Positions 4,168 to 31,592 of a stretch of 47,126 nt of DNA are shown here, one piece after another. Origin of the DNA: an uncultured Muribaculaceae bacterium (GTDB lineage: Bacteria > Bacillota_I > Bacilli_A > RF39 > UBA660); the NCBI GenBank assembly GCA_964369245.1, contig CAYJEL010000001.1, positions 1 through 47,126 of the forward strand, in the 5' to 3' direction. The position numbers and the translations under genes were made by a program. The stretch's first letter is position 1; each line of letters starts with the position of its first letter. Below the pieces are notes generated by a model. That model did not search any database and was not told the origin of the DNA. It worked only from the letters and a program-made list of their open reading frames with translations.

Positions 4168-6639
4168 ATGGATAAATTAGAATTAATAAATATTGAAAAA
4201 GAGGTAAAAGATTCATTTTTACAATACTCAATGAGTGTTATTGTGTCTAGAGCATTACCTGATTTAAGAGATGGTTTGAAGCCTGTTCATAGACGTATAT
4301 TATATGCAATGTTTGAGGATGGGTATACACCAGATAAGCAATATGTTAAAAGTGCTAAAACTGTCGGAAATGTTATGGGGAAATACCACCCTCATGGTGA
4401 TTCTGCAATTTATGATTCAATGGTTAGAATGGCTCAAGATTTTAGTTATAGACATATTTTAGTAGATGGTCATGGAAATTTTGGTTTTATAGATGGTTCA
4501 ACAGCTGCTGCATCTCGTTATACAGAAGCTAGGTTGTCTAAAATTTCTATGGAAATGCTAAGAGATATTGATAAAGAAACTATTGATATGGTTGATAATT
4601 ATGATGCTAGTGAAAAAGAACCGGTTGTTCTACCTAGTAGATATCCTAACATTTTAGTTAATGGTACTACGGGTATAGCTGTTGGAATGGCAACCAATAT
4701 TCCGCCACATAATTTATGCGAGGTTATTGATGCCTGTGTTGCTTATATTGATAATAATGATATTGAATTATCTGAATTGATGGAATTTATTAAAGGACCA
4801 GATTTTCCTACTGGTGGAACTATATTAGGTAATGCTGGTATAAGAAAAGCATATGAAACAGGTAGGGGTTCAATTGCAATAAGAGGTAAGGCTGAAATAG
4901 TTGAAGAAAAAAATAAAACTTTAATTGTTATAACTGAAGTTCCATATCAAACTAATACGTCGTCATTACAGATGAAAATAGCTGAATTAGTGCGTGATAA
5001 GGTATTAAGTGGTATTTCAGATTTAAGAGATGAAACTTCGCTTAAAAATGGCTTTAAATTAGTTGTAGAGCTTAAGCGCGAAGCTAATGCTAATGTTGTT
5101 TTAAATAATTTATATAAATATACTCAATTGCAGTCATCGTTCGGTATAAACTTATTGATGTTACATAATGGTAGGCCTCATACTTTTGGTTTAAAAGAAA
5201 TTTTAGTTCATTATACTGAGTATCAAAAGGAAATTATATATAGAAGAACTAAATATATTCTTAGAAAATCTGAAGAAAGATATCATATTTTATTAGGATT
5301 AAAGATAGCTTTAGATAATATTGATGAAGTTATTAAAATAATTAAAGAATCTAAAACAGAGCAAATAGCAAAAGATGTTTTAATGGAAAAATTTGGATTG
5401 GATGTTATTCAATCAACAGCTATTCTTGATATGAGATTAAGAAGATTAACAGGTTTAGAAAAAGATAAGATTGTTAATGAACTACAACAATTAGAAACTT
5501 TAATAAATGATTTAAAAGATATTTTATCTAATGAATTTAGAATTTTATCTATTATTAAAGATGAAATGTTAGAAATTAAACGTAAATTTGGTAATGAACG
5601 TAAAACGGATATTGACATGACAGCAATTGATTATATTGATGATGAATCTTTGATTCCTGTACAAGATATAGTTATTACGTTAACTAATAAAGGTTATATC
5701 AAAAGAATGGATACTGATAATTATAGAACGCAAAATCGTGGTGGTGTTGGTATTAAAGGTATGGCAACAAATGAGGAAGATTTTGTTGAAAACATAATTT
5801 CTATGTCAACTCATGATTATTTATTGATATTTACTAATAAAGGAAAAGTTTACCGAATGAAAGGGTATGAAATTCCATTGTTTAGTAGACAATCAAAAGG
5901 TTTACCAATTGTAAATTTATTACCGATTGATAAAGAAGAAAATGTTAGTGCAATGCTTAAAGTTGAACAAGAAGATGTCAATAAATATATTGTATTTTGT
6001 ACACAAAATGGTTTAGTTAAAAGGACTTTAATATCAGAATTTGATAATATTAGATCTAATGGAAAAATAGCTATTGGTTTAAAAGAAGATGATGAATTAA
6101 TTTCTGTTAAGAAAACTCAAGGTGATTCTGAAATAGTAATTGGAGCTTCTAATGGTAGAATGGTTAGATTTTCGGAAGATGAAATTAGAGTTATGGGAAG
6201 AACTGCTTCTGGAGTTAAAGGTATCAATATGGGTGTTGGTAAGGTTGTAGGATGTGAGATTTCAACAACAGATTCTAAGATACTTGTTGTTACAGAAAAT
6301 GGATATGGTAAGAAAACTTCAGTTGATGAATATAGAGTTACTCATCGTGGTAGTAAAGGTGTTAAAGCACTTAACATCACTGAGAAAAATGGTAACATAA
6401 TTTCGTTTAAAATTATTAATGATGATGATGATTTAATGATTATTACAAATAATGGTATAATTATTAGAATATCAATTGATCAAGTTTCATCTACGGGTAG
6501 AGTTGCTCAAGGAGTAAAACTTATTAACTTAAAAGAAGGTCAAAAGGTTTCAACAATAGCATTGATTAAGAAAATTGATGTTGAAGAAGAAATTGGCGAA
6601 GAAATTGTAAATGAAAATAGTACTGATGTACAAAATTAG
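4168..6639 (+). CDS. gyrA: DNA gyrase subunit A
   Basis: [29 protein letters not shown] and [11 protein letters not shown] (active-site Tyr region), plus C-terminal beta-pinwheel repeats. Confidence 0.97.
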
Positions 6640-6644
6640 AAAAA

Positions 6645-6668
6645 GGGTTTTATTTGAAACTCTTTTTT
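6645..6668 (+). terminator. Rho-independent terminator after gyrA
   Basis: GGGTTT (6645-6650) pairs with AAACTC (6657-6662, one G:U), a 6-nt loop, then TTTTTT. Confidence 0.6.
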
Positions 6669-6670
6669 CA

Positions 6671-6697
6671 ATGTTTCACGTGAAACATTGTGGATAA
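6671..6697. promoter_or_regulatory. Composite site 1: parS palindrome 6671-6688 abutting a perfect DnaA box TGTGGATAA 6689-6697
   Basis: Direct read. The inner 16 bp TGTTTCACGTGAAACA is the parS consensus. The box reads TTATCCACA on the minus strand. Confidence 0.8.
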
Positions 6698-6800
6698 AAA
6701 ATATAATTATAGTTATTTTAATACTATTTAACTTCCTTTTATATAGAATAGCACTATTTATAATTTTTTTACATTTCCCAACTTTAAATTAATATAAACT

Positions 6801-6827
6801 ATGTTTCACGTGAAACATAGTGGAAAA
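6801..6827. promoter_or_regulatory. Composite site 2: parS palindrome 6801-6818 abutting the degenerate box AGTGGAAAA 6819-6827
   Basis: Direct read. The box is TTTTCCACT on the minus strand, with the last base off consensus. Confidence 0.7.
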
Positions 6828-7009
6828 CTTTTATTTATTTTATATTGCAAATATTGGTAAAAAACATGTTGATAAATATAAATAGTATAGCACTATAGTT
6901 AATCTATTACTCAGATCACATTTATATTAAGATTAGTTTGATATTTTAACTATTTACTATTTTAAATATTGTACGTTTGTAATCAGTATATTCGTATCAT
7001 TTAAATTTC

Positions 7010-7036
7010 ATGTTTCACGTGAAACATTGTGGATAA
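7010..7036. promoter_or_regulatory. Composite site 3: parS palindrome 7010-7027 abutting TGTGGATAA 7028-7036
   Basis: Direct read. Confidence 0.8.
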
Positions 7037-7140
7037 AAAAATAATTATAGTTATTTTCATACTATTTAATATTCTTTTATATAGAATGCTACTATTTATA
7101 AACTTTTTTTAAATTTTCTAATTTTTAATTAATATAAACT

Positions 7141-7167
7141 ATGTTTCACGTGAAACATAGTGGAAAA
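7141..7167. promoter_or_regulatory. Composite site 4: parS palindrome 7141-7158 abutting AGTGGAAAA 7159-7167
   Basis: Direct read. Confidence 0.7.
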
Positions 7168-7313
7168 CTTATATATATAATATTAAAATAATAAAAAAAC
7201 TCATTTGTAATGATAAACATTAGCCTATATTATAAATAAATTAATTATATACAGCCATTTTAACTATATATATATAAATTTTAATAGTAATATGAATTTA
7301 TTATGTAATATCA

Positions 7314-7345
7314 ATGTTTCACGTGAAACATAAAATTGTGGATAA
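7314..7345. promoter_or_regulatory. Composite site 5: parS palindrome 7314-7331, AAAAT spacer, TGTGGATAA 7337-7345
   Basis: Direct read. Confidence 0.8.
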
Positions 7346-7519
7346 ACTTTAATTAAGCCATTATGAATATGTTTTACAAATATAATATATTGGATTTATT
7401 TTTATAGTTATTTATTAATAAATCAATATAATACGATTTCAATGACATATGTGTTAATTATTTACTTTTTTTTAAATAGTTTATACTTATAAATAATATA
7501 TTTGTATTATTTATATAAT

Positions 7520-7546
7520 ATGTTTCACGTGAAACATAGTGGAAAA
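7520..7546. promoter_or_regulatory. Composite site 6: parS palindrome 7520-7537 abutting AGTGGAAAA 7538-7546
   Basis: Direct read. Confidence 0.7.
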
Positions 7547-7660
7547 CTTATTTATAATGATAAATAATAGCTTATTTTATAAATAAGTTGTTTATATATA
7601 GTCATTTTAGACTATTTATATGGTTTTTTAGTAATAAAATAGATGTATTACGTAATATCA

Positions 7661-7686
7661 ATGTTTCACGTGAAACATGTGGATAA
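7661..7686. promoter_or_regulatory. Composite site 7: parS palindrome 7661-7678 overlapping TGTGGATAA 7678-7686 by 1 nt
   Basis: Direct read. Confidence 0.8.
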
Positions 7687-7852
7687 TTAAATAAAATTAC
7701 AATAATCTCTTTTCATTTAATTATTGTTAAATTTTTTATTAAATATAAAGAAATAAGTATAGAAATTAGAAATATTTTATAAAATAATACTCATTAGTAA
7801 TTGTTTTATTAAGTTATTAATATACTTAATATGTAATATTCAATTTAATTCA

Positions 7853-7879
7853 ATGTTTCACGTGAAACATTGTGGATAA
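7853..7879. promoter_or_regulatory. Composite site 8: parS palindrome 7853-7870 abutting TGTGGATAA 7871-7879
   Basis: Direct read. Confidence 0.8.
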
Positions 7880-7955
7880 CTGTTAATAGTATAGATTAAT
7901 ATAATAGTTAAGTGGGGGATAATATATTTAATTGTAATTAATATAATAAAAATTC

Positions 7956-7981
7956 ATGTTTCACGTGAAACATGTGGATAA
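7956..7981. promoter_or_regulatory. Composite site 9: parS palindrome 7956-7973 overlapping TGTGGATAA 7973-7981 by 1 nt
   Basis: Direct read. Confidence 0.8.
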
Positions 7982-8050
7982 TAGGAATATCTGTTAAAAT
8001 AATCCTTATAATTTTAATAATTTATTTATTTTTAATAGAAATTATTTATA

Positions 8051-8082
8051 ATGTTTCACGTGAAACATAAAATTGTGGAAAA
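8051..8082. promoter_or_regulatory. Composite site 10: parS palindrome 8051-8068, AAAAT spacer, TGTGGAAAA 8074-8082
   Basis: Direct read. The box is TTTTCCACA on the minus strand, a common DnaA-box variant. Confidence 0.75.
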
Positions 8083-8085
8083 TAC

Positions 8086-8114
8086 TTGATATATTTATAA
8101 AAATATTATATATT
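8086..8114 (+). promoter_or_regulatory. Sigma-A-type promoter of the SRP RNA gene
   Basis: TTGATA (8086-8091), a 17-nt spacer, then TATATT (8109-8114). The G at 8121 is a plausible +1. Confidence 0.5.
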
Positions 8115-8120
8115 ATATAT

Positions 8121-8191
8121 GCACAACATTTACATTCGAACCAGGTCAGAGTCGGAAGACAGCAGCCTTAAGGGTCTCTGAATGTGTGTGC
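8121..8191 (+). ncRNA. ffs: Small (4.5S-type) signal recognition particle RNA
   Basis: AACCAGGTCAGAGTCGGAAGACAGCAGCC matches the conserved SRP domain IV (E. coli 4.5S ACCAGGUCAGGUCCGGAAGGAAGCAGCC, GGAA tetraloop). The termini GCACA…/…TGTGC and CATTC/GAATG pair, followed by a T9 run (8192-8200). Position next to tadA-dnaX matches B. subtilis scr. Confidence 0.85.
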
Positions 8192-8211
8192 TTTTTTTTT
8201 AGGAGAATTTT

Positions 8212-8676: not shown

Positions 8677-10353
8677 ATGTATCAAGCTTTATACAGAAAA
8701 TATAGACCTAATAATCTTGATGATGTTTTTGGTCAGGAAATTGCTATTAAAATATTAAATAATGCTATTTCTAGAGATTCTATTAATCACGCATATTTAT
8801 TTTTTGGTCCTAGAGGTTGTGGTAAGACTAGTGTTGCTAAAATTATAGCAAATACTATCAATTGTAATAGTTTAGTTGATAACAAACCATGCAATAAATG
8901 TGTATTTTGTACACTAAGTAATGATCAAAAAATAGATATTATTGAAATTGATGCTGCTTCAAATAATGGGGTAGATGAAATAAGAGAAATTAGAAATAAA
9001 GTTAATTTAGCTCCTTCAACCGGTAAATATAAAATATATATAATTGATGAGGTTCATATGTTAACTATTGGAGCTTTTAATGCTTTATTAAAAACGTTAG
9101 AAGAGCCACCTGGTCATATAATATTTATACTTGCAACTACAGATCCTCAGAAAATACCAGCGACGATACTTTCTAGATGTCAAAAGATTGAATTTAAGCC
9201 AATTAGTATTAACAATATAAAATTGGGTTTAAATAAAATAATTAAAGAAGAATCAATAAATATTGAAGATAAAGCTTTAAATGAAATATGCAGGCTATCT
9301 GATGGTGGGATGAGAGATGCTATTAATTTGCTAGATCAATTAAATTTATATTCAGATAATATAATTAAAATTGATGATGTTTATGAAGTTGTAGGAATTA
9401 TTTCATCAAAAGAAATAGAATATTTAATCAATAAATTAATATTGAAGGATTTAAAATCTGTTTTAGAATTAGTCACTAATTATATATCAATTGGAAAAAA
9501 TATGATTAAAATTGTTGAACAATTGATTTATGAGTTAAGAAATAGTATGTATAATAATTTATCTCAAACAGCAGATTATATTTATATAATAAATTCATTA
9601 TCTGGTTGTATTAGTGAAATGAGAAAAAATAGTAATTCTAACATTATTTTAGAAATAGCTTTAATTAAATTATTGGGAAATAACACTACATCTAATATTA
9701 TTAAGGAAGACAAAAATATAGCACTTCAGAAAAATGAGGTTAAAAAAACCCCTAATGTTGAAAAAGTAGAGTTTAACACTAATTTTACAGAAGAAGAAAA
9801 AAGTGTTGATATTAAAGTGGAAAACCCTATAGATGACAAAGTTTTACTGTATGACAAAGGTAAAGAAAATATTTCCCGGGAAATAGATGAAAGTATATAT
9901 GTGGATATGGTTGATAGAAGAGTATCAAATGCGTTGGCCACATTTTCTAAAAAATTAATGTCAGATATTAAAATTAAATTAAACGATGTTAATGATTACT
10001 TGTTAGATGATAAGTATAAAAAAATTATTCCATTTATTTTGGATTCAGAATTAAAAATTACTAGTGAAAATTATTTAGTATTTGTATGTGATACTGAATC
10101 TTCATCTATGTTATTTAATGAATTGTTATTTGAAATAGAGGAATTGATGAATTTAATCTTAAATAATAGTTTTAAAGTTATATCTATAGATAATAATAAA
10201 TGGGAAATAATAAAAAAAGAATTTAATAATAAAGAGAAAGAGTATATCTATATTCAAGAAGATGATACAACAAAAACTTATCTGAATCAAATCTTTATAA
10301 GAGATAAAGAACCAATGGAGAGTTTGTTTGGAAATATAATTGAATATAAGTAA
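8677..10353 (+). CDS. dnaX: DNA polymerase III subunit gamma/tau
   Basis: YRKYRP…F.DV.GQE, Walker A GPRGCGKTS, IIDEVHML, SRCQ sensor, and a variable C-terminal tau part. Confidence 0.93.
   Translation: MYQALYRKYRPNNLDDVFGQEIAIKILNNAISRDSINHAYLFFGPRGCGKTSVAKIIANTINCNSLVDNKPCNKCVFCTLSNDQKIDIIEIDAASNNGVDEIREIRNKVNLAPSTGKYKIYIIDEVHMLTIGAFNALLKTLEEPPGHIIFILATTDPQKIPATILSRCQKIEFKPISINNIKLGLNKIIKEESINIEDKALNEICRLSDGGMRDAINLLDQLNLYSDNIIKIDDVYEVVGIISSKEIEYLINKLILKDLKSVLELVTNYISIGKNMIKIVEQLIYELRNSMYNNLSQTADYIYIINSLSGCISEMRKNSNSNIILEIALIKLLGNNTTSNIIKEDKNIALQKNEVKKTPNVEKVEFNTNFTEEEKSVDIKVENPIDDKVLLYDKGKENISREIDESIYVDMVDRRVSNALATFSKKLMSDIKIKLNDVNDYLLDDKYKKIIPFILDSELKITSENYLVFVCDTESSSMLFNELLFEIEELMNLILNNSFKVISIDNNKWEIIKKEFNNKEKEYIYIQEDDTTKTYLNQIFIRDKEPMESLFGNIIEYK
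9870..9885. promoter_or_regulatory. Perfect 16-bp Noc-binding-site (NBS) palindrome TATTTCCCGGGAAATA inside dnaX
   Basis: Direct read. Identical to the B. subtilis NBS consensus. Encodes I-S-R-E-I using TCC and CGG codons. Confidence 0.6.
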
Positions 10354-11268: not shown

Positions 11269-11298
11269 TTTTTATCATACTTTTTAGTGGTGATAATC

Positions 11299-11484
11299 AT
11301 GAAAAAAATATTTAGTATTTTAAAGAAAGTAGTATTGAGTGCATTTTTGTTATATGGTTATAATTTAATTGCTGCTCCAATGGGTATTATAATTCCAATT
11401 AATGTATTTACGATAATGATTTTATCATTTTTTGGTATTCCTTCTATTTTTTCGTTAATAGCTATTATTATCTTATTATATTGA
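11299..11484 (+). CDS. bofA: Small membrane protein, BofA-like (pro-sigma-K processing inhibitor family)
   Basis: Two hydrophobic helices with …PMGIIIPINVFTIMILSFFGIPSIF…, resembling BofA …LGLHVPINLVTTAISGILGIPGIA…. Same position after recR as in B. subtilis. Confidence 0.55.
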   Translation: MKKIFSILKKVVLSAFLLYGYNLIAAPMGIIIPINVFTIMILSFFGIPSIFSLIAIIILLY

Positions 11485-13914: not shown

Positions 13915-14757
13915 ATGTCACAAAAAAGTTATGATGGAAAACCATCTTTATATTTAATTCCGACGCCTATTGGTAATATGGAAGATATTACTCTTAGAAG
14001 TATAAATATTTTAAAAGAAGTTGAAGTAATATTTTCAGAAGATACTAGAGTTACAGGACAATTGTTAAATTATTTAAATATTAGTAAAAAGTTAATTTCT
14101 AATCATAAATATAATGAAATTGATAATAAAAATAAATTAATATCATATTTAGATAATGGTTATTCTGTTGGTTTAGTTTCAGACCGTGGTACTCCTGTAA
14201 TAAGTGATCCGGGTTATTTTTTAGCTGAACATGCTATTTCTTGTGGTTACAATGTTATTTCCCTACCTGGAGCTACAGCATTTGTATGTGCACTTATTAA
14301 TTCTGGTATAAACGCTGACAGATTTACTTTTTATGGTTTTTTGAATAGTAAAGGTTCTAAAAGAAAAAAAGAATTGCAAGAACTTGTTAATGTAAAAAAT
14401 ACATTGATATTTTATGAGTCTACGCATAGAATCATTGAAATGCTTAATGATATTAAGGAAGTACTGGGGAATCGTCGTTGTTCAATTTCCCGGGAAATAA
14501 CAAAAAAATATGAAGAAATATATCGCGGGGAAATAAATTTTGTCTTGAATGAATTAGATAATATAAAGGGAGAATTTGTAGTTGTTGTTGAAGGAAATCA
14601 GAATGAAATTTCATATGATGATATTTCTATAAAAGAACATATTGAACTTTATATGTCAAATGGTATGAGTTCAAAAGATGCTATTAAAGCTGTATCTAAG
14701 GAAAGAAATATGAATAAAAATGAAGTTTACATGGATTTTCACGGAGGTAATGAATGA
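13915..14757 (+). CDS. rsmI: 16S rRNA (cytidine1402-2'-O)-methyltransferase
   Basis: LYLIPTPIGN…D.T.R, SDRGTPVISDPG and PG.TA… tetrapyrrole-methylase-fold motifs. Confidence 0.88.
   Translation: MSQKSYDGKPSLYLIPTPIGNMEDITLRSINILKEVEVIFSEDTRVTGQLLNYLNISKKLISNHKYNEIDNKNKLISYLDNGYSVGLVSDRGTPVISDPGYFLAEHAISCGYNVISLPGATAFVCALINSGINADRFTFYGFLNSKGSKRKKELQELVNVKNTLIFYESTHRIIEMLNDIKEVLGNRRCSISREITKKYEEIYRGEINFVLNELDNIKGEFVVVVEGNQNEISYDDISIKEHIELYMSNGMSSKDAIKAVSKERNMNKNEVYMDFHGGNE
14485..14498. promoter_or_regulatory. Perfect 14-bp NBS core ATTTCCCGGGAAAT inside rsmI
   Basis: Direct read. Again in frame as att-tcc-cgg-gaa-ata (I-S-R-E-I). Confidence 0.55.
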
Positions 14758-23771: not shown

Positions 23772-24623
23772 ATGTTAGTAAATATGAAGGATATGCTTAA
23801 TAAAGCAAAAATAGGTAAATATGCAGTTGGTCATTTTAATATTAATAATTTAGAGTGGGCTAAGTTTATTTTGGAAGCAGGAGAAGAAATGAAATCTCCA
23901 ATAATTTTAGGTGTTAGTGAAGGTGCGGCACGTTATATGGGTGGTTATAAAACAATCGCTAATATGGTTAGAGGGTTAGTTAGTGACTTAAGTTTAACAA
24001 TTCCAGTAGCTCTTCATTTAGATCATGGAAGTTCTTTTGAGGTATGTAAGGAAGCTATAGATGCTGGTTTTTCATCAGTAATGATTGATGCTTCTAAAAA
24101 AGATTTGGATGTAAATATTAAAATTACCAATGAAGTTATTGAATATGCTAAAAAATTTAATGTTTCAGTTGAAACAGAAGTTGGGGCTATTGGTGGACAA
24201 GAAGATGATGTAGTAGCTGATTTAGCTTATGCTAAAGTTGAAGATGCTTTGAAAATGGTTGTAGAAACAAATGTTGATTTTTTAACGCCTGCTTTAGGAA
24301 GTGTACATGGTTTATATAAAGGTGAACCTAAGTTAGACTTTGGTAAAATGATTGAAATTAGTGAAAAGTCTAATGTTCCTTTGGTTTTACACGGAGGTTC
24401 AGGTATTCCAGATGATTTAATGAAAAAATCAATTGAATGTGGTATTTGTAAAATCAATTTAAACACTGAATTACAAATTGTATGGTCTTTAGAAGTAAGA
24501 AAATTTTTAAATAGTGATGAATTAGCTTATGATCCTAGAAAAATCATAAAAAGTGGTGAATTTGCTCTTAAAAAATTAGTTAAAGATAAAATCATATTAT
24601 TCGGTTCAAATAACAAAATATAA
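23772..24623 (+). CDS. fba: Class II fructose-1,6-bisphosphate aldolase
   Basis: YAVG.FN.NN.E, HLDHG, E.G.IGG.ED, LVLHGGSG and KIN.NTE motifs. Confidence 0.93.
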   Translation: MLVNMKDMLNKAKIGKYAVGHFNINNLEWAKFILEAGEEMKSPIILGVSEGAARYMGGYKTIANMVRGLVSDLSLTIPVALHLDHGSSFEVCKEAIDAGFSSVMIDASKKDLDVNIKITNEVIEYAKKFNVSVETEVGAIGGQEDDVVADLAYAKVEDALKMVVETNVDFLTPALGSVHGLYKGEPKLDFGKMIEISEKSNVPLVLHGGSGIPDDLMKKSIECGICKINLNTELQIVWSLEVRKFLNSDELAYDPRKIIKSGEFALKKLVKDKIILFGSNNKI

Positions 24624-27431: not shown

Positions 27432-28340
27432 ATGAAAAAAGTATTACTTTTAATTTTGGTTATTATTATAGTTCCATATTTAATTATTGATACTTTTATT
27501 AAAAAAGATGATATAAATTTCATCTATACTAGTAATATGTATATTAGTGTTTATCGTGAAGAAATAAATGAAATTGAAAAGGTATATTTTGAAGAATATA
27601 TAATTGGAGTTTTAGCTGGTGAAATGCCTATTAGTTTTGAAATGGAAGCTTTAAAAGCACAAGCTGTTGCTGCAAGGAGTTATGTTTTAAAACAAATGGA
27701 ATATAATAATGAACTTGAATATGATGTTGTAGATACTGTTAAAAATCAAGTGTATTTGGATGATAATTATCTAAAAGATGTTTGGGGAGAAAAGTATAAT
27801 GAATATATTTTGAAGTTAAAAAAAGCAGTAAATGATACGGCATATGAATATTTAGAATATAATGGTAATGTTGCTGAGGCTTTATTTTTTTCAACAAGTG
27901 TTGGATATACTGAAAATAGTGAGGAAGTTTTTTCTTCTTCGGTTCCCTATTTAAGAAGTGTTAGTTCTAGTTGGGATGAAATTTCTCCATCATATGAAAT
28001 TGAGAAAGTATTTAGTAAAAATGAGTTTTTTTCGTTATTAAATTTAGAAGTTAATGATTTAGAAGTTGAAATTATAGATCAAACTAGCACGGGGAGAATT
28101 AATGAGCTTTTAATCAACGATTCATTATATACTGATAGTGAAATCATTGCTCTTTTTGGTTTAAAATCTAATCATATTACTTTTGAAGAAGTTAATGATA
28201 ATATACATATTACAACAAAAGGGTATGGTCATGGAGTGGGGATGAGCCAATATGGAGCTCAAGGTTTAGCTTTAGAAGGTTATGATTATAAGTATATATT
28301 AAATCACTATTATAATGGTACTACTTTAAAAAAATTGTAA
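27432..28340 (+). CDS. spoIID: Stage II sporulation protein D (SpoIID/LytB-domain lytic transglycosylase)
   Basis: N-terminal anchor plus EALKAQAVAARSY, FFSTSVGYTE and GYGHGVGMSQYGA. Confidence 0.85.
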   Translation: MKKVLLLILVIIIVPYLIIDTFIKKDDINFIYTSNMYISVYREEINEIEKVYFEEYIIGVLAGEMPISFEMEALKAQAVAARSYVLKQMEYNNELEYDVVDTVKNQVYLDDNYLKDVWGEKYNEYILKLKKAVNDTAYEYLEYNGNVAEALFFSTSVGYTENSEEVFSSSVPYLRSVSSSWDEISPSYEIEKVFSKNEFFSLLNLEVNDLEVEIIDQTSTGRINELLINDSLYTDSEIIALFGLKSNHITFEEVNDNIHITTKGYGHGVGMSQYGAQGLALEGYDYKYILNHYYNGTTLKKL

Positions 28341-29072: not shown

Positions 29073-29321
29073 GTGAATAAAAAAATAATTGATAGAATAA
29101 ATTTGGAAGTAAATCATATTTTAAATACCCATGAGACTTTAAGAGAAATGGCTAAAATTTTTAAAATATCTAAAAGTACAGTTCATAAAGATTTACATGA
29201 ACGATTAAAAGAAATTGATGAAGAAAAGTATTTATTGGTGGATGAAATTTTATCATATCATAAGGAAGTAAGACACATCAGAGGTGGGGAATCAACAAAG
29301 AAAAAATATTTAAAATTATAG
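29073..29321 (+). CDS. spoIIID: Sporulation transcriptional regulator SpoIIID
   Basis: …SKSTVHKDL.ERL..I……EIL.YHK..RH.RGGE.TK.KY closely parallels B. subtilis SpoIIID. GTG start after AGAGGTG. Confidence 0.88.
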   Translation: MNKKIIDRINLEVNHILNTHETLREMAKIFKISKSTVHKDLHERLKEIDEEKYLLVDEILSYHKEVRHIRGGESTKKKYLKL

Positions 29322-30409: not shown

Positions 30410-30838
30410 ATGAAAAGAGAATTTTGTGCCTCTGTATTTGTTGTAAATCCTGTGGATAAAAAAATATTATTATGTTTTCATAAGGATTTTCAAAAATGGG
30501 TTCAACCAGGTGGACATATCGATAAAGATGAATTACCAGAAGAAACTGCTATTAGAGAAGCTTATGAAGAAACTGGTATTAGAATTAAGTTAATTGGAGA
30601 AAGATTTCCTCGTGAGGATGATTTTTTAAGACCTTTAGCTATTCAAAAAAATAGAAGCAGTGAAGTTATTCATGTTGATATCACATATGTTGGTGTACCT
30701 TTGAATCAAGATGTTGTTAAAATTGATGATGAGATATTAAAATATAGATGGTTTACTCGTGAAGAGTTAGATGAATATGATGTATTTCAAGATATAAAAA
30801 TAAGTTATGATTATATTGTTAAAAATATAATTAAATAA
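30410..30838 (+). CDS. NUDIX hydrolase
   Basis: Nudix box GGHIDKDELPEETAIREAYEETGI. Confidence 0.85.
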   Translation: MKREFCASVFVVNPVDKKILLCFHKDFQKWVQPGGHIDKDELPEETAIREAYEETGIRIKLIGERFPREDDFLRPLAIQKNRSSEVIHVDITYVGVPLNQDVVKIDDEILKYRWFTREELDEYDVFQDIKISYDYIVKNIIK

Positions 30839-30851
30839 CTTTTTTTTATTT

Positions 30852-30883
30852 GTCATAATAAAGTCACTTTTAATTGTTATAAT
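30852..30883 (+). promoter_or_regulatory. Activator-type promoter of the ABC/FtsX operon: direct repeat GTCA-N7-GTCA replacing the -35, plus extended -10 TGTTATAAT
   Basis: GTCA at 30852 and 30863 (11-bp period). TGnTATAAT at 30875-30883. No recognisable -35 hexamer. Confidence 0.35.
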
Positions 30884-30902
30884 GTTAATGAGGAGAGATT
30901 TT

Positions 30903-31592
30903 ATGGAAATATTGAAAGTAAAAAATTTAGTTAAAACTTATGGTGAGGGAGATAATTGTGTTAGAGCAGTTGATGATATTTCTTTTACTGTGGATAAGGG
31001 TGAATTCGTAGCCATTGTAGGAGCTTCTGGGAGTGGTAAGTCAACTTTATTACATTTAATTGGTGGTGTGGATAAACCTACAGGTGGAAAAGTATTTATT
31101 GATGGAACTGATATTTATAATTTGAAGCAAGATAAATTAGCAATTTTTAGAAGAAGACAAGTTGGTTTGATTTATCAGTTTTATAATTTGATTCCTATAT
31201 TAACTGTTTTGGAAAATATAACTTTACCTGCGGATTTAGATGGAAAAGAAATGGATTTATCTAATCTATCTGAAATCTTAAAAACTTTGGATTTAGAAAA
31301 TAGAAAAAATCATTTACCTAATCAGTTATCTGGTGGACAACAACAAAGAGTTTCGATTGGTAGGGCTTTAATTAATAATCCGGCTATAGTTTTAGCTGAT
31401 GAGCCGACTGGTAATTTGGATAGTAAAAATTCAGAAGAAATTGTAACTTTACTAAAAATGTCTAATAAAAAGTATAAGCAAACAATAATTATGATAACTC
31501 ATGATATGGAAATAGCTTCAGTAGCTGATAGAATTATTACAATTGATGATGGTAAAATAGTTAAGGATAGTAAATATGAAGATATTAAGTAA
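30903..31592 (+). CDS. ABC transporter ATP-binding protein (MacB/BceA-type)
   Basis: GASGSGKSTL, LSGGQQQRV, LADEPTGNLD and ITHD. ATG 6 nt after GAGGAGAG. Confidence 0.92.
   Translation: MEILKVKNLVKTYGEGDNCVRAVDDISFTVDKGEFVAIVGASGSGKSTLLHLIGGVDKPTGGKVFIDGTDIYNLKQDKLAIFRRRQVGLIYQFYNLIPILTVLENITLPADLDGKEMDLSNLSEILKTLDLENRKNHLPNQLSGGQQQRVSIGRALINNPAIVLADEPTGNLDSKNSEEIVTLLKMSNKKYKQTIIMITHDMEIASVADRIITIDDGKIVKDSKYEDIK

Follow-up and report, generated by a model that had tools for sequence, protein, structure and literature searches.

Consensus parS sites joined to DnaA-type boxes in a predicted origin-proximal centromere of uncultured gut Bacilli

The non-coding spacer between gyrA and ffs, the small signal recognition particle (SRP) RNA gene, in contig CAYJEL010000001.1 holds ten consensus parS palindromes, every one of which is joined on the same side to a 9-mer of DnaA-box type. 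The window that we analysed is the complete 47,126-bp contig of this metagenome-assembled genome (MAG), and its left end lies inside dnaN. Judging from its sequence and its conservation, the spacer is very probably the origin-proximal centromere of this chromosome, and DnaA probably binds the boxes. Taken as a whole, the reading that we favour is of a centromere predicted to double as an oriC-proximal DnaA-box cluster, which on balance we consider the likelier account; any specific mechanism that would couple the two activities is offered tentatively. The link between the start of replication and the start of segregation in bacteria is still an open question, and here evolution has repeatedly set a consensus DnaA box against a consensus ParB loading site, sometimes together with a Noc site, in a compact array at a fixed place.

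Ten parS–box composites downstream of gyrA

The 18-mer ATGTTTCACGTGAAACAT is present in ten exact copies, which begin at 6671, 6801, 7010, 7141, 7314, 7520, 7661, 7853, 7956 and 8051, precisely where an earlier note on this DNA had placed ten identical palindromes. Dinucleotide shuffles of the 47-kb window give an expectation of 0.01 copies, and a search of the whole window with two mismatches allowed returned the same ten matches, all perfect. When a 16-mer search was relaxed to three mismatches, weak sites alone were found elsewhere, the best of them (at 24161 and 40239) having two mismatches. The ten exact TGTTTCACGTGAAACA sites match the 16-bp palindrome TGTTNCACGTGAAACA, a consensus identical to that of the chromosomal parS of Bacillus subtilis.

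Each palindrome is followed by a 9-mer, and the earlier description of these 9-mers as lying in a single orientation at three offsets proved accurate. Six of them are TGTGGATAA, which is a perfect TTATCCACA on the minus strand (starts 6689, 7028, 7337, 7678, 7871 and 7973); TGTGGAAAA occurs once, on the plus strand, at 8074; and AGTGGAAAA, also on the plus strand and reading TTTTCCACT on the minus strand, occurs three times (6819, 7159 and 7538). All ten attached boxes lie on one side of their parS site and on one strand, and they overlap the 18-mer by 1 nt, abut it or are set off by an AAAAT spacer. With all coordinates on the plus strand, the perfect box abuts parS in composite 1 (6671–6697; parS 6671–6688, TGTGGATAA 6689–6697), composite 3 (7010–7036; parS 7010–7027, box 7028–7036) and composite 8 (7853–7879; parS 7853–7870, box 7871–7879). 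It overlaps parS by 1 nt in composite 7 (7661–7686; parS 7661–7678, box 7678–7686) and composite 9 (7956–7981; parS 7956–7973, box 7973–7981). The AAAAT spacer separates parS 7314–7331 from a perfect box at 7337–7345 in composite 5 (7314–7345), and parS 8051–8068 from TGTGGAAAA at 8074–8082 in composite 10 (8051–8082). The AGTGGAAAA box is found in composite 2 (6801–6827; parS 6801–6818, within the 24-bp palindrome ACTATG..CATAGT, box 6819–6827), composite 4 (7141–7167; parS 7141–7158, box 7159–7167) and composite 6 (7520–7546; parS 7520–7537, box 7538–7546).

Six perfect boxes in the 1.47-kb spacer compare with about 0.01 expected by chance, as estimated from the local base composition. Boxes away from parS are rare inside such arrays, and the spacer has a single one, the lone one-mismatch box TTATCAACA on the minus strand at 6867–6875, 49 nt from the second parS site. 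With six perfect, one one-mismatch and three two-mismatch boxes on parS sites, and this lone box, all within 1.4 kb, the spacer has the content of a DnaA-box cluster.

The spacer itself (6640–8109; 1.47 kb, 17% G+C) contains no open reading frame (ORF) of more than 34 amino acids, although AT-rich pseudo-ORFs up to that length are present; the gap between gyrA and the SRP RNA gene is thus ORF-free, as the earlier note had it. An Rfam scan of the spacer gave no match, even at E≤1, besides the SRP RNA at 8110–8207, and Tandem Repeats Finder (TRF) detected no tandem array in it. The parS sites are spaced, start to start, by 130, 209, 131, 173, 206, 141, 192, 103 and 95 nt (about one site per 140 bp), and these irregular spacings, together with the lack of a TRF array, show that the window's array is not a fixed-period head-to-tail repeat of the sopC kind. 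Identity among the flanks of the ten copies is 0.42 upstream and 0.39 downstream compared with 0.36 expected, which is near random, so that the 18-mer and its box stand out as conserved islands. A few recent segmental duplicates can still be recognised, units 1–2 resembling units 3–4 and units 4–5 resembling units 6–7 at 84–87% identity.

Conservation of the array and of its boxes in relatives

We scanned whole assemblies of representative genomes with the composite pattern and obtained 89 loci, about 60 of which belong to low-GC (24–32%) uncultured gut MAGs labelled 'Bacilli/Tenericutes/Mycoplasma/Clostridium sp. CAG'. In all of these clade loci the composite match lies between gyrA and tadA–dnaX, in the order gyrA–[parS]n–tadA–dnaX, and since whole assemblies were scanned, those genomes have the composite at no other locus. 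Genome-wide scatter, which the earlier note had named as the mark of a repetitive extragenic palindromic (REP) element or a miniature inverted-repeat transposable element (MITE), is therefore not what the relatives show, and within the 47 kb of the window none of the composites lies outside the spacer.

A second sample was independent of the motif, its members being fetched from metagenomes by GyrA similarity alone (63–70% identity). Nearly every such locus with at least 500 nt past gyrA had 2–10 parS-like sites, the first within about 30–420 nt of the gyrA stop codon, and no parS-like site was found elsewhere in up to 14 kb of these loci. In 74 of the 76 dereplicated lineages placed on a neighbour-joining tree of GyrA, two or more parS-like sites (2–10) follow gyrA; the lineages are uncultured gut Bacilli of low GC content ('Tenericutes/Mycoplasmatota' MAGs), perhaps of RF39/RFN20 type. 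The comparison of gyrA-downstream regions that had been suggested for related genomes thus reveals a conserved parS array.

These data leave next to no probability for the idea that the array is a dispersed selfish repeat (REP- or MITE-like) or an assembly artefact. The contig does come from a short-read MAG, and many metagenome contigs break at the array. However, the composite occurs in the gyrA–ffs spacer alone in the window and at the gyrA–tadA locus alone in every clade assembly found by the scan, the array is reproduced at the same syntenic site in more than 100 independent assemblies, and the sequence between copies is unique, with repeats (at most 27 nt) shorter than typical assembly k-mers. 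Many of the metagenome contigs L090–L169 that carry a clade gyrA end within the array or 100–250 nt past the gyrA stop. Assemblies of clade genomes break systematically at the parS array, which explains why contigs so often stop just downstream of gyrA, and dense parS after gyrA is a simple centromere marker for the clade.

Array architecture varies among relatives, some arrays being dispersed as in the window and others true tandem repeats. The tandem period of parS is 35–37 bp in L171 and L174 and 112 bp in L165, and in these loci a sopC-like repeat is found. The 35–37-bp arrays (at least eight copies; contig ends or contains Ns) lie at L174:12485–12817 and L171:12576–12817, and the 112-bp array at L165:8569–9145; L171 and L174 are the closest box-less relatives, and all three arrays resemble plasmid centromeres of the sopC type. 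In L005, L007, L011 and L019, parS sits inside a longer palindrome, whose 5–8-bp outer arms vary from copy to copy yet stay complementary (gtatccaa/ttggatac, agccaa/ttggct, gcgataa/ttatcgc), with the DnaA box just outside the arms. Complementary arms of this kind suggest that extended dyad symmetry is selected for, possibly with cruciform or hairpin formation.

The boxes have a conservation of their own. The spacers of the sister species L065 (GyrA 93%) defy alignment with those of the window, yet ten parS-like sites are kept, nine of them with an abutting box of the GTGGA type (TGTGGATAA, TGTGGAAAA or TGTGGAAAG, for example). This closest relative (CAYJJY010000033.1) was deposited as 'uncultured Muribaculaceae'; its contig has 24% GC and Firmicutes origin synteny, and it is probably mis-binned or mislabelled.

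Ascertainment was removed by leaving out the parS-like sites that matched the search pattern, which left 209 sites in 61 loci. A box with at most one mismatch lay within 18 nt of 21.5% of these sites in an 'inward' geometry (TTATCCACA reading towards parS); the corresponding figures were 0.8% for control positions within those spacers and 1% for boxes in the reverse orientation. In the motif-unbiased, GyrA-selected set, 24% of 164 unique sites had a box with at most one mismatch in an 'outward' geometry (parS, 3–5 nt, TTATC[C/A]ACA), and inward boxes were found at 0 of the 164. Pooling gave such a box, within 14–18 nt, at 90 of 375 non-ascertained unique parS sites (about 24%), against a background of under 1%. 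The logo of 153 parS-adjacent boxes reads T-T-[A/t]-T-[C/t/a]-[C/a]-A-C-A, with variation at positions 3, 5 and 6; DnaA boxes are degenerate at positions 3 and 5. Moreover, the parS-adjacent variants TTATCAACA, TTTTCCACA and TTATCCACT also populate the rpmH–dnaA and dnaA–dnaN spacers of the clade, which form its oriC. Footprint, enrichment, logo and oriC-shared variants together argue that box and parS are genuinely associated and that recognition by DnaA is the best explanation. The proposal that the adjacent 9-mers behave as DnaA boxes is upheld in this sense, by their enrichment next to parS, their degeneracy and the variants that they share with oriC.

A simpler explanation would be that the array is a centromere only, in which the parS sites are functional and the 9-mers are passengers of a duplicated unit, homogenised through gene conversion or unequal crossing-over and binding nothing important. 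Arrays do grow by segmental duplication, as the pairs of similar units in the window illustrate, and close relatives do well without boxes, whose presence is patchy across the tree. Several features of the boxes speak against this explanation, however. They persist amid flanks whose identity among the ten copies is otherwise random, they are kept in L065 despite its unalignable spacers, and they stand at three different offsets within the window. Separate lineages also show adjacency in four geometries, at over 25 times the background frequency, and box variation tracks both DnaA-box degeneracy and the oriC variants of the clade. We therefore regard passenger boxes as unlikely.

Recognition of the 9-mer by something other than DnaA is less likely again. 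The 9-mer might serve ParB as a degenerate third half-site, lying roughly one turn of the helix beyond the right one (GTGAAAC.. then GTGGATA..), or be bound by another, accessory protein. GTGGA[T/A]A shares five of seven bases with the half-site GTGAAAC and, at offsets 0–1, starts 10–11 bp past the start of the right half-site; ParB of Pseudomonas aeruginosa is reported to bind many copies of a parS-related motif (PMC5961200). In contrast, the best-conserved positions of the box (its TTAT and CACA ends) differ from those that it has in common with the half-site. Neither the frequent variant TTATCAACA nor the outward geometry looks like a half-site, and identical 9-mers build the canonical oriC clusters of the clade.

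The juxtaposition that the earlier note called fixed turned out to differ between lineages. Four geometries are scattered over the GyrA tree, with the box on the tadA or the gyrA side, pointing towards or away from parS, at offsets of 0–1, 3–5 or 7–8 nt across lineages. The arrangement is uniform within a lineage, which is consistent with growth by duplication, and the pattern as a whole argues for repeated gain or frequent remodelling of box adjacency. As far as these sequences tell, the property conserved across lineages is closeness (at most 8 bp), not orientation or side. This favours a proximity-based interplay over a stereospecific ParB–DnaA contact, which is less likely; a fixed docking geometry between the two proteins was rejected, since side, orientation and offset all vary between lineages.

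Origin setting, partition proteins and a proposed mechanism

By Pfam assignment, the gene order of the window is dnaN, a ComK-family gene, recF, gyrB, gyrA, the array, ffs, tadA, dnaX, ybaB, recR, bofA, holB and onward. The genes flanking the array are all on the plus strand, as are almost all genes of the window, and the GC skew stays strongly positive (+0.26 to +0.34) to either side of the array, without a switch. This puts the array on the leading strand, a short way downstream of an origin beyond the left end of the contig. In relatives at 78–81% GyrA identity the order is mnmE–jag–yidC–rnpA–rpmH / dnaA–dnaN–comK–recF–gyrB–gyrA–[array]–tadA, a classical Firmicutes origin region, with dnaA and oriC 7–8 kb upstream of the array and box-rich spacers on both sides of dnaA. 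There are 11 perfect TTATCCACA boxes in the dnaA-flanking spacers of L174, and the oriC of L142 combines two boxes as TTTTCCACA-A-TATCCACA ahead of an AT-rich run, as in a canonical bipartite oriC around dnaA. The identification of the palindromes as consensus parS in an origin-proximal position, 3′ of dnaN–comK–recF–gyrB–gyrA, is borne out by this arrangement, and the array stands at the same place clade-wide.

The suggestion that the spacer might itself have origin function fared differently. In that case it would be a replication origin, or a third oriC module, with embedded parS, like the ori/centromere repeats of Deinococcus secondary replicons. Ten DnaA-type boxes in 1.4 kb of 15–17% G+C DNA would suit such a role, and cisII/cisMP of Deinococcus are a precedent for uniting both functions. 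However, the skew does not switch at the array and the flanking genes are co-oriented, the relatives have their canonical bipartite oriC around dnaA (tandem boxes, then an AT-rich run), many lineages have an array without any box, and no box pair with a trio-like or unwinding element was seen when the spacer was read by eye. Candidacy of the array as oriC failed on GC skew, on gene strand and on the location of oriC at dnaA in relatives, and we consider an origin here highly improbable.

No ParB was found among the ORFs of the window, which covers one contig of the genome. The presence of parAB, which the earlier note had wished to see confirmed, was established in the closest relatives with long contigs, where ParA, ParB and a Noc-like gene are all encoded. 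Walking leftward via MnmE we found mnmG, rsmG, a ParB-family protein of 473–530 amino acids in the noc position, ParA (261 amino acids) and ParB (289–290 amino acids). Both ParB-family proteins fall in the ParB/Spo0J domain family (NCBIfam), and the one in the noc position scores best on the Noc model, with 278–290 bits, under the model's cut-off of 315. This protein (L175:14061–15482, L176:14048–15640) is unusually long, the Noc model covering its first 210–225 residues ahead of a long C-terminal extension; Noc of B. subtilis has 283 amino acids. In 21 kb of the relatives' origin region no parS-like site was found outside the gyrA-side array, and none in or near parB. DnaA is encoded in relatives, including L170 and those at 78–81% GyrA identity; in L170, a 65%-identity relative, no parAB was found upstream of dnaA and the region is rearranged.

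Two perfect Noc-binding palindromes, ATTTCCCGGGAAAT, are present in the window, at 9871–9884 (in dnaX) and 14485–14498 (in a TP_methylase gene), against a chance expectation of 0.08 even with two mismatches allowed; they would imply that this organism has a Noc-type ParB paralogue. The window's own array contains no Noc site. In relatives, tripartite composites are seen in which a Noc site, a DnaA box and parS follow one another as ATTTCCCGGGAAAT-AAT-TTATCCACA-A-TGTTTCACGTGAAACA, for example at L009:3997–4040, L026:3187–3228 and L086:3402/3919/4455 and in L083, L059 and L072. Within 30 nt of a parS site there are 43 Noc sites, in 24 loci, with a modal gap of 12–13 nt; Noc sites are dense overall in these relatives (221 in 1.16 Mb).

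Taken together, the clade-wide parS array, the lack of any other parS within about 20 kb of oriC in the relatives examined, the ParA, ParB and Noc-like proteins and the canonical oriC of relatives point to a centromere rather than an origin or a dispersed repeat. In the mechanism that we propose, ParB would load on the ten parS sites as a CTP (cytidine triphosphate)-dependent clamp, spread and build a partition complex, and it would recruit SMC (structural maintenance of chromosomes), as in B. subtilis. DnaA would occupy the boxes 0–6 bp from each parS site in this and the sister species, so that about ten DnaA molecules could be held at ParB loading sites. The interplay would be one of proximity: DnaA and ParB would exclude each other sterically or act as a roadblock to one another, or titrated DnaA would simply be co-localised with the ParB/ParA hub. 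More speculatively, DnaA may limit or direct the movement of the ParB clamp, or ParB occupancy may control the release of DnaA. With the locus about 7–8 kb from oriC, it would be duplicated almost at once after initiation, doubling both centromeres and DnaA sinks.

A bolder version, which we think possible but rather doubtful, would treat these composites and the tripartite Noc–box–parS sites (about two dozen related loci) as a conserved cis-acting coupler of the initiator and the CTP-dependent ParB-family clamps. DnaA sitting 0–8 bp from the loading site would gate or block the loading and sliding of ParB or Noc, and loading clamps would evict DnaA. The availability of DnaA for oriC and the assembly of the centromere would then control each other on the DNA, not via Soj, in an arrangement gained repeatedly, in four geometries, across a large clade of uncultured gut Bacilli. 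Because the two motifs correspond to the consensus sites of B. subtilis Spo0J and DnaA, the array could be synthesised and tested in that organism or with the purified proteins.

Several points weigh against a centromere that doubles as a DnaA-box cluster. The next-closest relatives, L171, L172 and L174 (GyrA 78–81%), have parS arrays without boxes, as do L100/L170, L150, L165, L167 and L168, and adjacency is therefore dispensable. Since copies within the array arose by duplication, its ten boxes on ten parS sites do not count as independent events. The three TTTTCCACT boxes depart from the strict consensus by two mismatches, ten boxes are a small titration capacity, and co-occupancy by ParB and DnaA at a spacing of 0–1 bp may be sterically impossible. 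Finally, the contig does not reach as far as ParB, ParA or DnaA genes or an oriC.

The boundaries of the array are formed by gyrA and ffs. The gyrA gene (4168–6639, plus strand; Pfam DNA_topoisoIV and GyrA C-terminal repeats) is the upstream anchor of the synteny gyrA–[parS array]–ffs–tadA–dnaX, and the small SRP RNA gene (8110–8207, plus strand; Rfam RF00169, 57.6 bits) is the downstream boundary, beyond which lie tadA, dnaX, ybaB, recR and bofA. Read by eye, a weak terminator-like hairpin, GGGTTT/AAACTC with a T-run, follows gyrA at 6640–6668 on the plus strand; it was not flagged by the terminator scan, which needs at least three G–C pairs, and the three 'terminator-like' matches of that scan are parS palindromes themselves. 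The first parS begins 2 nt past the T-run behind gyrA, and in many relatives the first parS comes right after a 'ctttttt' run.

At the other end, composite 10 lies just upstream of the best promoter-like site, TTGATA-17-TATATT, beside the SRP RNA gene. The boxes could accordingly make DnaA a transcription factor for ffs–tadA–dnaX, the parS association being incidental, and DnaA regulates several B. subtilis genes via box clusters. Nine of the ten boxes, however, are 100–1400 bp from that promoter, promoter-like sites are not enriched in the array (27 compared with 23.2 in shuffles), and in other lineages the boxes lie on the gyrA side or are oppositely oriented. A regulatory role of this kind is very unlikely.

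Elsewhere in the window, the ComK-family gene at 536–988 (Pfam E=1e-39) lies between dnaN and recF, a position conserved across the clade; in B. subtilis, yaaA occupies the dnaN–recF position. The sporulation-associated genes bofA, spoIID and spoIIID are found at 11287–11484, 27432–28340 and 29073–29321, in a genome of about 24–25% GC whose relatives carry the public labels Tenericutes, Mycoplasmatota or Mollicutes. Three perfect TTATCCACA boxes lie within 625 bp on the minus strand (30451–30459, 30989–30997 and 31067–31075), inside NUDIX and ABC-ATPase genes, where roughly one perfect box is estimated by chance for the whole window. The trio at 30451–31075 may be a second, intragenic DnaA-box cluster.

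Comparison with known centromeres and DnaA-box clusters

The F plasmid centromere sopC consists of 12 repeats of 43 bp. The gyrA–ffs array is like it in having many ParB-type sites in one short non-coding array, and unlike it in being irregularly spaced (95–209 bp), with unrelated spacers, on a chromosome and with the chromosomal parS consensus. In B. subtilis, by contrast, parS sites occur singly, for the most part within genes, over hundreds of kilobases, and the link between replication and segregation works through proteins (Soj/Spo0J with DnaA). The present array shares with the B. subtilis parS/Spo0J system its proximity to the origin, the soj–spo0J pair that lies downstream of rsmG in relatives, and a presumed role in ParB loading and SMC recruitment. 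It differs in that ten perfect sites, each with a box, crowd a 1.4-kb non-coding stretch whose syntenic position is fixed.

Clustering of parS near the origin is not in itself exceptional, contrary to what the earlier note had supposed. The number of parS sites ranges from 1 to about 23, with up to 20–23 in some species, in a review that also asks what drives their clustering (PMC7333895). Outside the clade, we observed a dense parS region in L062, a Dialister MAG (Negativicutes), with thirteen parS-like sites of at most one mismatch across 8 kb.

Considered as a set of boxes, the array resembles the DnaA-box clusters (DBCs) of B. subtilis and datA of Escherichia coli, being a non-origin, intergenic cluster of consensus DnaA boxes near oriC. 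The oriC-proximal DBCs of B. subtilis act with Spo0J/Soj to restrain initiation, and in the absence of Spo0J they become critical (PMC3245932). There, however, DBCs and parS are separate loci whose link is genetic and protein-mediated, whereas here box and parS are joined unit by unit.

The earlier note knew of no DnaA-box cluster built from fused parS–box units, but DnaA boxes at centromeres are known. In Caulobacter crescentus, DnaA binds boxes within the parS region near the origin and this has been linked to the start of segregation, according to a review that summarises Mera et al. 2014 (PMC6399470). Caulobacter, which belongs to another phylum, has a few boxes within a parS region, unlike the one-to-one repeated composite with perfect consensus boxes described here. 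Our scan also returned alphaproteobacterial, Rickettsiales and Micavibrio MAG loci with 2–4 exact parS sites, one of them with an abutting or nearby TTATCCACA-type box (L037:5001–5026, L056:2416–2441, L039:7530–7555, L036:3009–3039, L057:5523–5548). Both L037 and its near-identical counterpart L056 keep the composite, as does L039, which has diverged further; this recalls DnaA at the Caulobacter centromere.

The second precedent is cisII/cisMP of Deinococcus radiodurans, where DnaA boxes overlap parS-like iterons and the arrays bind both DnaA and ParB (PMC7671480). These are likewise arrays of repeated centromere-like units, 8–11 in number, with DnaA boxes. Their 18-bp direct iterons and boxes are non-canonical, and they lie upstream of parAB on secondary replicons and act as replicon origins, whereas in the gyrA–ffs array both motifs are canonical and the locus is on the main chromosome, separate from oriC. 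Within the full-text library searched for parS and DnaA boxes, no description was found of repeated parS::DnaA-box composites or of a parS array downstream of gyrA. In conclusion, chromosomal parS, non-origin DnaA-box clusters and DnaA at a centromere are kinds of element already known; what is new, as far as that search reached, is the one-to-one fusion of parS and box, the density, the fixed syntenic place and the recurrence in a whole uncultured clade.

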